A DNA stretch of 64,000 nt from a virus. How positions within the stretch are numbered: position 1 is the first letter of the stretch; every line of letters begins with the position of its first letter. The stretch is from the IMG/VR virus record IMGVR_UViG_3300046332_000238, positions 40,720 through 104,719 of that record. One strand, given 5' to 3'. Below, one piece after another: positions 12,983 to 50,728 of this stretch. The position numbers and the translations under genes are program-made. The notes beneath the pieces were generated by a model. It worked only from the letters and a program-made list of their open reading frames with translations. It had not been told where the DNA came from and did no database searches.

Positions 12983-13359
12983 TGGCCATAACTAATCCAT
13001 GGAGTGTTAATGGTGTAATACAAGACGATTATTCCTCAGCTTCTAGAGGTAGAATTGCTGACTTACCATATCCTGTTGAACATATTATTAATGGTAAAAT
13101 GTTGATTGCTTCATATTCAATCATGGAATATAAATTTAGTGATCGCATACACATTGCTGGCCAGAAACAGACTGAAGATGAGATTAAAGATGAATTGTTG
13201 ATGTTGTTGGTGAATGAAATGAAGAAATCAAACTTTATTGAATACACACGACAAATAGATATATTATCAGGTGCTGTTAATTTCAAAGCAAGAATATTTG
13301 TGACACCTAACGATCAGGTAAGACTTATAAGAGAAATAGAACAGAGGAAAACAAAATGA
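12982..13359 (+). CDS. hypothetical protein
   Basis: TAATG coupling. Confidence 0.7.
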   Translation: MAITNPWSVNGVIQDDYSSASRGRIADLPYPVEHIINGKMLIASYSIMEYKFSDRIHIAGQKQTEDEIKDELLMLLVNEMKKSNFIEYTRQIDILSGAVNFKARIFVTPNDQVRLIREIEQRKTK

Positions 13360-13362
13360 AAA

Positions 13363-14022
13363 TTAATATAAAATACACCAATTTTTATATGTCCTTCCTT
13401 TGTTAATAATTTCAGAAACACCACTTTTGTTTATATTGTAACATTTATAAAATACCCATCGAGTGCATTTTATTAATTCACCAGTTTGTATATTGAAAAA
13501 ACTATAAACTAAATTATCGAAACGTGAATTATTTTTAAAACTGTTATTTTTTAATTTGGCTTTTTCTGAACGAATTAATTTTAATTTATCCGACTTTTCT
13601 TTACCATATAATTCTTCGTATGATTTATTTTTGAATTTTTTTATTGCATTTTCTGATAATTTTTTCTTAACTTCGTTCGTGTGTGTTTTCCCGAACATAC
13701 CATTTAATTCACCACACAATGTTGGACCCCTTTTTCCACCTGGAACTGTATTATAACCACCAACAATTGAATCATATTCACTGATGAAATAAGATTCCAT
13801 AACATTTAGTGTATGGTCTTTTTCTTTAGATTGATATAATACTTCCCATATAAAATTATTCCATCCATATTTTTTTATGGCATTATAGAATTTTATATTG
13901 TTTTCTTTTTCTGATTCTCGTTTGTGGTCGGTTTTTCTTTTTGGCCAATGCGAATCAAAACCTATGTATCGTTGTTTTGTTACAACATTGTAAGCGGAAT
14001 AGATTGAATATATAGTTGACAC
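13363..14022 (-). CDS. GIY-YIG homing endonuclease (Seg-like, NUMOD3)
   Basis: IYSIY...YIG, E..FI.EY...GYN...GG, NGMFGKTHT; antisense to the operon; very AT-rich. Confidence 0.85.
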   Translation of the reverse strand: MSTIYSIYSAYNVVTKQRYIGFDSHWPKRKTDHKRESEKENNIKFYNAIKKYGWNNFIWEVLYQSKEKDHTLNVMESYFISEYDSIVGGYNTVPGGKRGPTLCGELNGMFGKTHTNEVKKKLSENAIKKFKNKSYEELYGKEKSDKLKLIRSEKAKLKNNSFKNNSRFDNLVYSFFNIQTGELIKCTRWVFYKCYNINKSGVSEIINKGRTYKNWCILY

Positions 14023-14044
14023 AGCTGTGTCCTTGTGATATAAT
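14016..14044 (+). promoter_or_regulatory. consensus sigma70 promoter embedded in the endonuclease start/leader
   Basis: TTGACA 14016-14021, 17 nt, extended TGn-TATAAT 14039-14044. Confidence 0.8.
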
Positions 14045-14097
14045 TTGACATAGAGTGAGTAGATGTTGACGCATCGTGACTCACATCCCTATTTATA
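14023..14097 (-). ncRNA. conserved structured leader, copy 1 (late promoter + two hairpins)
   Basis: TATAAATA gggat GTGAGT cac GATG cgtcaa CATC t ACTCAC tcta TGTC...GACA cagct GTG; compensatory changes relative to copies 2 and 3. Confidence 0.7.
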
Positions 14098-14113
14098 TAT
14101 TATGGAGAGTATT

Positions 14114-15085
14114 ATGTCTCAGAAAGGTAAAAAGGTCGGAAGCTTGCGTATTGCAATTGCTTCCGACCTGTAGCTGCATTTGGAGTTTGGTGACCTTGAT
14201 TTGCATAATACAGATAATGCTGATGTGCTGATTCTTGGTGGTGATATTTTTGTCGCTAACGACCTTGTGAGTCTTGAAGATTCCATTGAAATTGCAAAAC
14301 TGGTACCAACACGAGCTCGTTTTCGTGCAGAGAAATTTTTTGATTTTGTAAAACGTTGCAGTGATCGGTTCCCTAAAGTAATTTTGATTGCTGGTAATCA
14401 TGAACATTATCATGGTGAGTTTCAGGATACATACAAAACAATCAAGAAAACCTTTAAAGAATTTACCAATGTGTATGTCTTGGATAAAGAATCGGTAGAA
14501 CTTGATGGCACCATTTTTGTTGGTGGTACATTGTGGACTGATATGAACAAAGAAGATCCAATGACCATTCATGCAATTTCTGGTATGATGAATGACTTTA
14601 ATTGTGTAACAAATGGCATAACACACCGTAAAGTGCCACTGTATAAAAAAGATGCATCGGGTGAATACATCATTGATGATAAACGTATTGGTTACATCGT
14701 AGATGGTTTTAAAATGAAAGAAGAACCTGCTAGATTTACTCCTAACCATGCGGTGGAAGACCACAAACAATTTCTTCAATATTTGAAACTAGTAATGGAA
14801 AATAACACAGATAAAAAACCTGTTGTTGTTTGTTCTCACCATGCACCAAGTCGTCGCAGCACACATCCAAGGTATGCAGGACAAACCCTGATGAATGGTG
14901 GATATAGTTCTGAATTGGACGAGTTCATTATGGATAGGCCAGATATCAAACTCTGGACTCATGGACATACACATGAACCTTTTGATTATATGGTTGGTGA
15001 TACTCGTATCGTTTGCAATCCTCGCGGGTATAAAAATCATGAAAAGAGTGCAGATTATTTTGAGTTAAAATTTGTTGAAATTTAA
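14114..15085 (+). CDS. calcineurin-like metallophosphoesterase interrupted by an in-frame TAG at 14171-14173 (candidate ribosomal hop)
   Basis: GGAG RBS + ATG 14114; SDL*LHLEF, GD, GNHE, HH, GHTH motifs; the track ORF from 14180 lacks the DxH motif. Confidence 0.85.
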
Positions 15086-15094
15086 GGAGATAAA

Positions 15095-15547
15095 ATGAGT
15101 GTTACAATTAAGAATTTAGAAGCAGCATTTGCTGGTGAGAGTCAAGCACATACCAAGTACCGATATTTTGCTAAGATGGCAAGAGCACAAGGATTTGAAG
15201 ATGTTGCAAAACATTTTGAACATACAGCAGAACAAGAACTACTTCATGCGTGGGGTCATTTGGAATTACTGATTGGTAAACCAGATGTTAAACAGTGTCT
15301 TGAAATGGCCATTGAAGGTGAGACACACGAGTTCACTACAATGTATCCTACAATGCAATCAGAAGCAATTGCAGAAGGTGATGAATTTGCTGCGAAAGAA
15401 GCAGCAGATCAAATTTTAGAAAGTAAAGAACACGCAGAACAATTTGCAACAGTTCTTGCTAAGGCAGAAAAACGTTTTAATGCTTTGAAGAAAGTAGAAC
15501 AACGTCACGCAGAAGCTTACACAAAAGTATTGGAGAATGTAAAATGA
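15095..15547 (+). CDS. rbr: rubrerythrin (diiron ferritin-like domain)
   Basis: NLEAAFAGES.A..KY, E..HA, AIEGE..E...MYP, E..H. Confidence 0.9.
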   Translation: MSVTIKNLEAAFAGESQAHTKYRYFAKMARAQGFEDVAKHFEHTAEQELLHAWGHLELLIGKPDVKQCLEMAIEGETHEFTTMYPTMQSEAIAEGDEFAAKEAADQILESKEHAEQFATVLAKAEKRFNALKKVEQRHAEAYTKVLENVK

Positions 15548-15678
15548 GCGAAACACATGTATGTGTAGTATGTGGTCATGAACATGATGATCTAGTAGAG
15601 GGTGCATGGGGTACATTACCTGACGACTTTACTTGTCCTGAATGTGGTTGTGGTAAGGAAGAATACGAGTCAATTTAA
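15544..15678 (+). CDS. rubredoxin (44 aa, not in track)
   Basis: CVVCGH...LPDDFTCPECG; ATGA overlap with rubrerythrin. Confidence 0.9.
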   Translation: MSETHVCVVCGHEHDDLVEGAWGTLPDDFTCPECGCGKEEYESI

Positions 15679-26304: not shown

Positions 26305-26526
26305 ATGCCTACAAAGAATGAGATTAGTGAATTTAGTGATACGATTGAAGAAATAACCAGTCAATTAAAGTGTACTCGATTGGATGCAATACTTCATCAT
26401 TGTGAACAGACAGGTATGGAACTTGATGTGGCATCAACGTTGATTTCTTCTTCATTGAAATGTAAGATCGAAGAAGAATCACAAGAACTGAACCTGTTGA
26501 AGAAGAAATCTAGACTGATGTTTTAA
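26305..26526 (+). CDS. 33: late-transcription coactivator gp33
   Basis: FS..IE......LDAI...C...........LIS..LK.KIE.E...LNLL; upstream of gp59/gp32. Confidence 0.8.
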   Translation: MPTKNEISEFSDTIEEITSQLKCTRLDAILHHCEQTGMELDVASTLISSSLKCKIEEESQELNLLKKKSRLMF

Positions 26527-27118
26527 AATCTGAATTTTGTTTTAGTTGTTTGCTTATCCAAGATGCACTTTTATTGTAATAAGAAGCAGCTTCACCACAT
26601 GAATTGAATGTACCATCAGGAGTTATTATTTTTTTATGCAAATAATTAGAATCTCGACTTCTGGCAGATTTTGACATGACTTTACGGCTTTCATCTGTGT
26701 GTTTTCGGCCATACATTGGATGGTTGGTTTTATCACAATAACGTTTTTTTGCTTGAGATGAAATATTATTGTTGTGTTCTGTGGAGTAACAATTTGTTTT
26801 ACCTTTATTCCATGGTGCGAATCCAATGCGTCCTTCACCACCAGTGGTTGAATTGTATCCAGATTTAAAAGAATTATATTCAGTTATAAAATGAGATTCC
26901 ATAACATTTAATGTATAATCGAGGTCTTTTGATTGATATAAAAGGTACCATTCGAAATTTTCCCAACCATGTTTACAAATTGCACGATAAAATTTAAAAT
27001 TATATTTTTTATATTTGGCTTTGTGTGAATTTTTTCTTGCTGGCCATTTAGAATCAAAACCAATATATACTTTGTTATTGATTTTATTGACACATTTGTA
27101 AATTGAATAAATAGACAT
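26510..27118 (-). CDS. GIY-YIG homing endonuclease (NUMOD3)
   Basis: IYSIYK..N..N.KVYIG, GYN.T.GGEG, PWNKG, HPMYGRKHT. Confidence 0.85.
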   Translation of the reverse strand: MSIYSIYKCVNKINNKVYIGFDSKWPARKNSHKAKYKKYNFKFYRAICKHGWENFEWYLLYQSKDLDYTLNVMESHFITEYNSFKSGYNSTTGGEGRIGFAPWNKGKTNCYSTEHNNNISSQAKKRYCDKTNHPMYGRKHTDESRKVMSKSARSRDSNYLHKKIITPDGTFNSCGEAASYYNKSASWISKQLKQNSDFKTSV

Positions 27119-27191: not shown

Positions 27192-27797
27192 ATGACAGAA
27201 ACCACTGGGTTTGAAGCTTTTTGTTTATTCCACAGTTTAAAATTGCACTTTACTGGTGATTATGATTATGTGAAATACCATGGTAAGACTAATGTTTCTA
27301 AAGACACCTTTGCAAACAGGAAAGACAAGTACACTTTCTACAAATTGTCACGCAAATATAATCTAGAGAATTTAAAAGACTTCTATATTGCAAACTTTTT
27401 GGAGAAAGATGTAAGTTGGATCGGTGATATCTCCAGTGTTGAAGGTGAAGAAAACCTCAAGAAGTGGCAGAAGCGTAGTCAGAGTCTATCATATAGATTC
27501 GAACAGGACGTTCTTGGTGTATTAAACAATATCAATTCACCTAATGAGATGTTGGTTGTGAATGATGGACAACATCCACTTCTATTGAATGAGGTAATGC
27601 AAGGAACTATTGCCATAGAAACACTGGTGATAATGAATGATATTATGAACTTCTTTCCTATGTGGAATAAGAAAATCAATGATACGATTATCTGGCCTGC
27701 ATTTAAGAAGAAGTGTGAAAAGTACCTGCCGTTCTTACACTATGATAAGAACAAATTTAAAGGTATATTAAAAGAATGTCTGGCAGAGTACGCCTAA
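27192..27797 (+). CDS. 59: helicase loader gp59
   Basis: LKLHF...YDY.KY.GK, F..RKD...F.KL; 33-59-32 synteny. Confidence 0.85.
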   Translation: MTETTGFEAFCLFHSLKLHFTGDYDYVKYHGKTNVSKDTFANRKDKYTFYKLSRKYNLENLKDFYIANFLEKDVSWIGDISSVEGEENLKKWQKRSQSLSYRFEQDVLGVLNNINSPNEMLVVNDGQHPLLLNEVMQGTIAIETLVIMNDIMNFFPMWNKKINDTIIWPAFKKKCEKYLPFLHYDKNKFKGILKECLAEYA

Positions 27798-27831
27798 ATA
27801 TGTTGACACAGGTGAATGCTTGTGTTATACT
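27794..27831 (+). promoter_or_regulatory. late motif (CTAAATA) plus sigma70 promoter for gene 32
   Basis: CTAAATA 27794-27800; TTGACA 27803-27808, 17 nt, TATACT 27826-27831. Confidence 0.7.
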
Positions 27832-27898
27832 AGTAGTTGATTATGCAATATGTGAAATAATCCGTTTTATATTCCGTTAATACGAAAGGCAACAAATT

Positions 27899-28807
27899 AT
27901 GGCAATTGATTTTTCAAAACTCAAAACATCTTCAGGTAATCTAGACAAACTCACCAAAGCAATCGAAGCACTAAACAGTTCTTCCGATGGCAACGACAGC
28001 AAAGAAAAATTCTGGCGTCCCGAAGTAGATAAGTCTGGCAATGGCATGGCAACAATCCGATTCCTCCCTGCACCTGGTGCTGATGGTGACGATGGTCTGC
28101 CTTGGGTTAAAATCTTCTCACATGGTTTCCAAGGTCCAGGTGGATGGTTGATTGATAACTGTCTGACTACCAAGAACCAACAATGTCCAGTATGTGAACA
28201 CAATTCAACATTGTGGAATTCTGGCATCGAAGCAAATAAAGAAATCGTCCGTAAGCAAAAACGTAAACTTAATTACATTGCTAACGTGTACATCGTTTCT
28301 GATCCTAAGCATCCAGAGAATGAAGGCAAAGTATTCTTGTTCAAATTTGGTAAAAAGATTTTTGACAAGATTAACGAAGCAATGAATCCACAGTTCGCTG
28401 ATGAAGAAGCAATCAATCCATTTGATATGTGGAAAGGTGCTAACTTCAAACTGAAGATTCGTAAAGTTGAGGGTTATCAGAACTATGATAAGTCTGAATT
28501 TGAATCTGCATCACCATTGAATAGTGATGATGACGAACTGGAAGCAATCTGGAAGATGGAACATTCTCTGTCAGACTTGGTTGGCGACAAAGAATTTAAA
28601 TCATATGATGACCTAAAAGGTCGTTTGGATAAAGTTCTTGGTTTGAATGGTGCAGTTATTGCACCAAAGACCACTGTTGAACAGATCAAGGAAGATAACC
28701 GTGTAATCAGAGACAATCCAGCAGCTAAACCTGTTGTGTCTCGCGCACCGGAAGTCACTGAAGATGATGACGATATGGCATATTTCTCAAAACTTGCCGA
28801 AGATTAA
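27899..28807 (+). CDS. 32: single-stranded DNA-binding protein gp32
   Basis: DK.GNG.A.IRFLP, HGFQGPGGW, CP.CE, NYDKSEF, acidic tail. Confidence 0.95.
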   Translation: MAIDFSKLKTSSGNLDKLTKAIEALNSSSDGNDSKEKFWRPEVDKSGNGMATIRFLPAPGADGDDGLPWVKIFSHGFQGPGGWLIDNCLTTKNQQCPVCEHNSTLWNSGIEANKEIVRKQKRKLNYIANVYIVSDPKHPENEGKVFLFKFGKKIFDKINEAMNPQFADEEAINPFDMWKGANFKLKIRKVEGYQNYDKSEFESASPLNSDDDELEAIWKMEHSLSDLVGDKEFKSYDDLKGRLDKVLGLNGAVIAPKTTVEQIKEDNRVIRDNPAAKPVVSRAPEVTEDDDDMAYFSKLAED

Positions 28808-49978: not shown

Positions 49979-50728
49979 ATGATGGCATGTATTTACAAAG
50001 TTACAAATAAATTAAATAAAAAAACTTATATTGGTTATAGTAAAAATTTTGCAAAAAGAAAAAGTGTACATAAAGAAAATGCATTAAAGAGAAATGTTGG
50101 TTTTGTTTTCTACCAAGCAATTCGTAAATACGGATGGGACAATTTTGAATGGGAAATAATATATGAAAGTTGGGATGATAAACATTGTTTAACTGTTATG
50201 GAACCATACTTTATCACAGAATATAATTCTTTTGGTGAAAATGGTTACAATATGACAAGAGGTGGTGAACGTGGACCAGACACAATAAAAAGAAAACCAC
50301 TCACTGAAGAACAAAAAAATAATATTAGTGTACAAACAAAAAAAAATGCTTTGCGTGGTGAAAACCATCCCATGTATGGAACCAAAGCGAATTCAAAATT
50401 TCTACAATCAGCAAAAACCTCCATGTTAGGTAAACAACATTCAGAAGAAACTAAAAAACAACAAAGTAATTCCCGAAAAGAATATCTGAAATTGAATAAT
50501 GCAGGAATGTTAGGTAAGAAACATTCAACTGAAACCAAACAAAAAATGAAGTCTAAAAGGTTAGAAAAATGGGAATTATATAATGGTGAAACCAAACAAA
50601 CCATATTAATAGATGATTTGATGGAATATAGTACAATAAATAATATAAATTACAAAACTGTTTACGCTTGGACATATCAAATAATTGATGGTAAACAAAG
50701 ACTAAAAAAGGTAGAAAATGGCTCTTAA
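49979..50728 (+). CDS. GIY-YIG homing endonuclease (NUMOD3)
   Basis: IYKVTN..N.K.YIG, GYNMT.GGE, GK.HS.ETK repeats. Confidence 0.88.
   Translation: MMACIYKVTNKLNKKTYIGYSKNFAKRKSVHKENALKRNVGFVFYQAIRKYGWDNFEWEIIYESWDDKHCLTVMEPYFITEYNSFGENGYNMTRGGERGPDTIKRKPLTEEQKNNISVQTKKNALRGENHPMYGTKANSKFLQSAKTSMLGKQHSEETKKQQSNSRKEYLKLNNAGMLGKKHSTETKQKMKSKRLEKWELYNGETKQTILIDDLMEYSTINNINYKTVYAWTYQIIDGKQRLKKVENGS

Follow-up and report, generated by a model that had tools for sequence, protein, structure and literature searches.

A putative short translational bypass element carried by a homing-endonuclease cassette in freshwater T4-like phages

Only one case of efficient programmed bypassing has been studied in bacteria and phages, that of phage T4 gene 60, where a 50-nt bypass forms part of the mobA homing-endonuclease cassette (Bonocora et al. 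2011, cited in 10.1101/2022.08.31.505936) and where a driver role has been proposed for pairing of the mRNA leaving the ribosome (Wills et al., 10.1101/2024.12.09.627546). Homologs of gene 60 have been reported only in topoisomerase genes (10.1101/2022.08.31.505936). Stop-hopping at a low level, with 9 nt read as one residue, has also been described (10.1101/2024.12.09.627546; 10.1101/2022.08.31.505936), and these sources characterize the synthetic stop-hop constructs of E. coli as unstimulated and low-level (Weiss et al. 1987; O'Connor et al. 1989, cited in 10.1101/2022.08.31.505936 and 10.1101/2024.12.09.627546). A full-text literature search found no paper linking bypassing with a phosphoesterase.

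Two further systems invite comparison with the locus described here. The mitochondrial genome of the yeast Magnusiomyces capitatus contains byps, mobile inserts in coding sequence over which ribosomes skip between matched codons; the present inserts would likewise be skipped between matched codons, whereas byps are longer (tens of nucleotides), mitochondrial and not known to have a homing-endonuclease partner. Seg-type GIY-YIG endonucleases of T4-like phages are free-standing, and point differences in the target are the usual explanation for the immunity of their carriers. The present locus resembles these in having an intergenic nuclease gene beside a presumed target, presence or absence of that gene between close relatives and a short donor tract, and differs in that the target motif carries a stop-containing insert requiring recoding.

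This locus is probably a programmed short translational bypass ('stop-hop') of 6 nt, or 9 nt in some relatives, that would restore the motif SDLHLEF of a metallophosphoesterase and that is carried on a homing-endonuclease cassette; the reading is drawn from sequence comparison, and no protein has been measured. The initial annotation of this DNA had proposed a minimal natural bypass element, a proposal that comparative data support with the hop still inferred and no product observed, and it had made no mention of the homing-endonuclease cassette in which the element is placed. Its suggestion that enzyme output may be tied to RF1 or ribosome status gained no evidence from these comparisons.

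The interrupted phosphoesterase gene and its hairpin

The window, meaning the whole stretch of 64,000 nt that was analysed, comes from an IMG/VR virus record of 104.7 kb assembled from a freshwater metagenome, and its neighbourhood is T4-like, with gp32-like and gp59-like genes further along. The gene under study, whose features all lie on the plus strand, opens at ATG 14114, 6 nt downstream of a Shine-Dalgarno-like GGAG (14104–14107) read from the sequence. From this ATG, 18 sense codons lead to the proposed take-off codon CTG (Leu, 14168–14170), which is followed by an in-frame TAG (14171–14173), the proposed slow-to-decode A-site codon, by the proposed landing codon CTG (Leu, 14174–14176), by CAT and by TTG at 14180; the codons before and including the stop read GCT TCC GAC CTG TAG and those after it CTG CAT TTG GAG TTT GGT GAC. 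The leader ORF of 19 sense codons and TAG (14114–14173) thus encodes a 10-residue extension and then the beta-1 strand and motif I Asp (LRIAIASDL). The open frame from 14174 comprises 303 codons and closes with TAA (15083–15085), and this body (14174–15085) has motifs II–V (GD, GNHE, H, GHxH) intact and matches the metallophosphoesterases (Pfam PF00149, E 1.5e-10; PHROG 1649, E 2.5e-45).

About 190 relatives in IMG/VR begin M-[KR]-I-A-x-x-S-D-[ILV]-H-L-E-F, with neither extension nor stop, and their Met1 aligns with TTG 14144 of the window. Since these relatives all start in this manner, only loss of the 6 nt restores motif I of the metallophosphoesterases (DxH), which is whole only when those bases are skipped; the D-x-H spacing of this motif is invariant among the ~190 sequences. 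Directly 3' of the phosphoesterase gene, the window also contains a rubrerythrin gene (PF02915) and then a 44-codon rubredoxin-like ORF with two CxxC pairs (15095–15678).

The 5' arm (14133–14143) and 3' arm (14159–14169) of an inverted repeat form a perfect 11-bp stem that ends inside the first CTG, the 3' arm covering the Ala-Ser-Asp codons and positions one and two of the take-off codon, and enclose a 15-nt loop (14144–14158) with inner TTGC/GCAA pairing. RNA folding of a 121-nt stretch gave −39.4 kcal/mol in comparison to −25.7 ± 3.5 for shuffled sequences (z = −3.97). The description given in the initial annotation was borne out in these respects: the frame from ATG 14114 with CTG TAG CTG inside motif I is present in the sequence, the rest of the gene is intact as a 303-codon frame with motifs II–V kept, the perfect 11-bp repeat with its inner stem ends in the take-off codon as stated, and the claim that a 6-nt skip alone restores SDLHLEF agrees with the ~190 relatives.

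The six bases, for which that annotation had advised a check of read support, were also compared with contigs from other sequencing runs. Contigs from two further freshwater runs, both of other samples, matched the site without any difference, one of 383 nt (run X4; 14097–14479) and one of 305 nt (run X5; 13956–14259), and a 21.8-kb contig of a possible source run (X1) was also identical at the site. None of the contigs from four runs lacked the 6 nt. It is important to note that contigs lose rare variants, so that a minority form lacking the 6 nt cannot be excluded from contig comparison. Megablast of window positions 13300–15600 gave no match among GenBank phages, and the exact 24-nt site sequence is carried by no other IMG/VR contig.

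Conservation of the element in related phages

Further copies were found by DNA patterns in IMG/VR and in JGI/ENA metagenomes, resulting in 21 distinct element sequences, the window and 20 others, from independent metagenome assemblies. The metagenome pattern fixed TCCGACCTN and the HLEFG codons, and the conservation of these is therefore a matter of ascertainment; the landing codon was left free. The elements share ancestry, so that the codon and stem covariation rests on a handful of independent events rather than on 21. A search with the nuclease protein, blind to the element, recovered two loci (L082/L083) with a 59% identical nuclease and the same arrangement, in which the enzyme body is only ~50% identical and the site reads GAC CTT TAG TGA CTT CAC. 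Four hits (L116 and L211–L213) were dropped as chance matches.

One or two stops directly follow the take-off codon in all members, as TAG, TAA or TAG TGA, with the tandem TAG TGA in seven loci (six distinct element sequences) and TAA in one. The landing codon is CTN in 21/21 sequences (CTA in 12, CTT in four, CTC in four and CTG in one) and differs at the third base only. The take-off codon is likewise CTN in all 21, and the pairs CTG/CTG, CTT/CTT, CTA/CTA and CTC/CTC were all seen; the commonest type is CTT TAG CTA, and L114 has CTT TAG CTC. CTN codons make up 47% of the Leu codons in the same genes, and the next Leu codon is TTR in 13 of the 21. Intact genes have Ile (44%), Leu (34%) or Val (21%) at the landing position, which indicates that the enzyme needs no Leu there, and re-pairing of a Leu-tRNA would need one. 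No start codon is conserved 3' of the stop, the position of TTG 14180 being TTA, CTC, CTA, CTT or CTG in most other members.

A helix of 9–15 bp ending at or within the take-off codon was present in 20 of the 20 elements scored, compared with 3–8 bp in 108 intact genes, and the 5' arm at that distance was not found in any uninterrupted IMG/VR gene. One stem pair, in which a base of the Ala codon that can change synonymously faces a leader base whose change alters the residue, is A-U in 10 sequences and G-C in seven. Further compensatory pairs occur in L112, L119 and L130, where the 3' arm includes Val or Gly codons. L119 and L120/121 have the 5' arm in a different frame of the leader, and the RNA is therefore conserved, not the peptide. 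Template-switch mutation can also keep short inverted repeats perfect. The initial annotation had suggested a search of homologs for a codon-stop-matched-codon pattern with compensatory hairpin changes, and the 20 further interrupted genes have cognate CTN codons on both sides of the stop and a covarying stem. It had also held that close homologs with the hairpin and without the insertion would refute its proposal; the outcome was the opposite, as the close homolog L001 lacks both and the 5' arm is found in no uninterrupted gene.

An in-frame upstream ATG opens the leader in 20 of the 21 elements, and the leader retains an enzyme-like beta-1 strand and Ser-Asp though it ends at a stop. The exception is L117 (Ga0214167_1000983), whose A run is one base shorter than that of its near-twin L126, so that the upstream ATG is no longer in frame; the frame of L117 opens only at the ATG aligned with Met1 of intact genes, inside the hairpin loop. 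The downstream ORF is intact in 20/21 complete loci, including loci where the nuclease gene has been lost or reduced to a 22-residue remnant, and motifs II–V are invariant in the 13 element-bearing bodies compared. The body of L112 (Ga0172372_10002345) shifts frame once after ~59 codons (~180 nt past the landing codon) and is otherwise open to its end, which could mean that the gene is decaying, that the sequence contains an error or that a second recoding site is present.

The homing-endonuclease cassette

The gene immediately upstream of the leader in the window is a free-standing GIY-YIG homing-endonuclease gene of 219 codons with a GTG start (13363–14022, minus strand), divergent from the phosphoesterase gene. 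Its product matched PHROGs 314 (7e-22), 7168, 5123 'with GIY-YIG motif' (5e-12) and 19446 and had no Pfam match at E 0.01, and relatives of this nuclease adjoin the same kind of element in other phages. A consensus sigma-70-type promoter (TTGACA, 17 nt, TATAAT, with a TG extension; 12/12 matches; 14016–14044, plus strand) overlaps the nuclease start codon and faces the phosphoesterase gene, and a similar promoter occurs in L105 and L108. Positions 14090–14097, ~70 nt upstream of the nuclease start, read TATTTATA on the plus strand and TATAAATA on the minus strand and are kept in L105; TATAAATA is the T4 late-promoter consensus, and the nuclease may be transcribed late, head-on to the sigma-70 promoter of the enzyme.

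Comparison with an intact allele (L001) delimited the cassette. This allele is the nearest of the ~190 relatives; its body is 97% identical, and it lacks the nuclease gene, the insert, the hairpin and the N-terminal extension; the TGA of its upstream gene overlaps the ATG of its enzyme. The window preserves the same overlap in a stranded original phosphoesterase start (ATG AAA ATT, 13356–13364, plus strand) that marks the left cassette junction, and high identity to L001 restarts at ~14185, about 10 nt past the landing codon. The inserted or replaced block between them is ~820 bp (13365–14185) and contains the nuclease gene, the promoter, a new RBS and ATG, the 10-residue leader and a diverged copy of the enzyme's opening codons that includes the 6-nt insert. 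This replacement copy covers the first nine enzyme codons and is broken inside motif I by the stop-led 6 nt (9 nt in some relatives). The ~820-bp block is thus the footprint of a homing cassette together with a short donor tract.

Identity profiles showed cassette DNA to be 94–100% alike where the gene bodies are only 60–85% alike. L117 and L126, for example, have cassettes 97–100% alike, bodies 58–83% alike and unrelated upstream flanks. A second carrier (L104) has an intact twin (L132) that is 98% identical. Presence or absence of the cassette in the window and L001 and in L104 and L132, and the occurrence of the same cassette in diverged hosts, meet the criterion of mobility for a GIY-YIG gene. 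These comparisons show that the cassette spreads horizontally and has done so recently, and the six extra bases arrived with the selfish nuclease gene.

The nuclease gene is divergent in the window, L105, L115 and L130, is directly upstream on the same strand in L107 and L108, is absent in L114, L119, L122, L124 and L128, and persists as a 22-residue remnant in L104. The element and an intact enzyme gene are kept in L104/L110 and in L128 despite the nuclease remnant (L104) or absence (L128), and the closest relative of L128 is L108, which retains the nuclease gene. Adjacent upstream ORFs of six element loci without a match to this nuclease hit no homing-endonuclease family of PHROGs, and at these loci the element thus stands with no recognisable nuclease gene close by. 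Nucleases of the cassette lineage have diverged to 43–63% identity.

Two further GIY-YIG nuclease genes occur in the window, at 26510–27118 (minus strand; 41% identical to the gene at 13363–14022) and at ~49991–50641 (plus strand; 35% identical). The former sits divergently before the gp59-like gene, which is followed by the gp32-like gene (27192–28807), and no stop-interrupted neighbour was seen beside it. In another record (L091, IMGVR_UViG_3300000558_001420), a relative of the nuclease lies between two pieces of a phosphoesterase 3' end (residues 263–301 and 49–301), which suggests another insertion site at the 3' end of the phosphoesterase gene with a duplicated end.

Values of dN/dS among element-bearing bodies ranged from 0.07 to 0.21, the same as between intact genes. 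Intact bodies and low dN/dS values do not prove that the gene functions once interrupted because both may predate each insertion. Most body divergence does predate insertion, as cassettes 94–100% alike are found in diverged bodies and two carriers have 97–98% identical intact twins. The dN/dS of the bodies and their tree, in which intact genes were sampled by likeness to the window, were thus set aside as decisive evidence of selection after insertion, given the recent horizontal spread of the cassette and the intact twins L001 and L132.

Proposed mechanism, alternatives and relation to known systems

Under the proposed mechanism, ribosomes would initiate at ATG 14114 and stall once CUG 14168, paired with peptidyl-tRNA-Leu, occupies the P site and UAG the A site, and termination would there compete with unpairing of the peptidyl-tRNA-Leu. 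The mRNA would then slip 6 nt forward (or 9 nt in relatives), the tRNA would re-pair with CUG 14174 and decoding would restart at CAU, so that nine nucleotides specify one Leu and the predicted product reads ...IAIASDLHLEFGD... At the stall, the loop and 5' arm of the hairpin, 10–35 nt upstream, would already be outside the ribosome and its 3' arm still in the E site and exit channel, and zipping of the stem could drag the mRNA forward out of the ribosome, in keeping with the driver role proposed for the gene 60 stem-loop 5' of take-off. This pulling model is a geometric inference, and a hop of 6–9 nt would free only part of the 3' arm. By analogy with T4 mobA/gene 60, the insert probably makes the conserved motif-I DNA unfit as a target of the nuclease itself; in this way the cassette would shield its carrier from cutting with the enzyme not destroyed, cleavage and resistance both being inferred. 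The strong promoter and RBS of the cassette might, speculatively, offset a modest hop efficiency. Whether this constitutes a widespread family of cassettes in freshwater T4-like phages that disable their own target with a 6–9-nt stop insert and repair it at the ribosome through an exit-mRNA hairpin, in an efficient, peptide-independent hop from one Leu codon to a cognate one, is a broader proposal to which we give even chances.

The main, serious rival to the hop is that the insert only destroys the nuclease target and that the phosphoesterase is dead in all carriers, its gene looking intact since the invasions are recent. The much higher likeness of cassettes than of the bodies around them fits such an account, as do the intact twins of the window and L104 (97–98% identical) and the frameshifted body of L112, and the enzyme is probably dispensable, as phage accessory genes often are. 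A dead gene would not, however, be expected to have a CTN landing codon that varies at the wobble base only. The stop has stayed directly after the take-off codon through changes between TAG, TAA and TAG TGA, the hairpin covaries and is found in no intact gene, the open leader with its enzyme-like beta-1 strand has been kept while the nucleases diverged to 43–63% identity, and bodies are intact where the nuclease gene has decayed or been lost, all of which render this rival unlikely in our judgement. Less likely still is removal of the extra bases from DNA or RNA in part of the population, by slipped-strand deletion or RNA excision, followed by normal translation. Pairs such as CTG...CTG and CTT...CTT do form short direct repeats around the gap, and a minority form would escape contigs, which drop rare variants; the repeat is merely 2 nt in the commonest type (CTT TAG CTA), however, no contig in the four runs lacked the 6 nt, the hairpin would be left unexplained, and we know of no mechanism that excises 6–9 nt from RNA.

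Readings in which the stop is decoded or the leader is not part of the enzyme have very little to commend them. Frameshifting was rejected, as the gaps are multiples of three. Readthrough or suppression of the stop would lengthen motif I by two (or three) residues inserted between its Asp and His. In most members the base after TAG is C, a weak termination context, but the tandem TAG TGA of seven loci (six distinct sequences) and the TAA of another do not fit this reading, which would also break the invariant D-x-H spacing and leave the cognate flanking codons unexplained. Moreover, neither the window nor the whole 104.7-kb record has a tRNA gene according to ARAGORN, and TAG serves as a terminator in 10 of 110 long ORFs, so that we find readthrough scarcely credible. 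A similarly poor case can be made for the leader as a separate regulatory small ORF with a hairpin, the truncated enzyme being made from TTG 14180 or CTG 14174: TTG 14180 opens a 301-codon ORF in the window, but its position is unconserved, landing codons are mostly CTA, CTT or CTC, none of which are start codons, and the product would be without the motif I Asp, or without both Asp and His. The initial annotation had dismissed both readthrough and a downstream TTG start for failing motif I, consistent with the D-x-H spacing and the unconserved TTG. The chance of an assembly or sequencing artefact is negligible, for although the record is a metagenome assembly, identical contigs occur in other samples and 20 related natural versions come from independent assemblies.

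The programmed hop, as the preferred reading, can then be compared with the described systems. The synthetic stop-hop constructs share with the present element the order codon, stop, cognate codon, the specification of one amino acid by 9 nt and the deciding role of the first two codon bases in re-pairing; the present element differs in being natural, conserved in many phages, provided with a dedicated hairpin and, in some members, interrupted by two stops. The likeness to T4 gene 60 includes a cognate pair of take-off and landing codons, the former immediately followed by a stop and preceded on its 5' side by a stem-loop able to form on the exiting mRNA, its action on the ribosome being inferred here. 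The loop has its 5' edge 24 nt before take-off in the window and 26 nt before it in gene 60. In both systems, the insert travels with a homing-endonuclease gene and is missing from near-identical alleles.

Several differences separate the two. The host gene encodes a metallophosphoesterase here and a topoisomerase in T4, the nuclease is of the GIY-YIG rather than the HNH type, take-off is from a Leu codon (CTN) here and from Gly GGA in T4, and the sequences are not homologous. At 6 or 9 nt rather than 50 nt, the gap is too short for a take-off stem-loop inside it; no such stem-loop at take-off and A site was found, the only conserved helix being 5' of take-off. Only 19–21 residues have been made at take-off and the leader peptide has no conserved motif; a nascent-peptide signal is accordingly not apparent, as leaders differ and the 5' arm lies in different frames in L119 and L120.

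If the hop is true, this locus would provide a second natural bypass that is unrelated to gene 60 and much simpler, consisting of three codons and one hairpin with no long peptide signal. Its dozens of natural variants form a mutational series of codon pairs, one or two stops and stems of 9–15 bp, and would allow a direct test of exit-mRNA pairing as the driver of forward slippage (10.1101/2024.12.09.627546). Under the broader proposal, such a minimal, evolvable bypass module would also be a strategy by which selfish DNA in general could compensate for its insertion through recoding. Genes of this kind are now annotated as truncated ORFs or pseudogenes.

In summary, the element has no gap stem-loop, no peptide signal and no homology that would place it in the gene 60 family, yet, as judged from its sequence features, it is gene 60-like in its working, and a homing endonuclease and a recoding signal would, if this is true, have been paired more than once.
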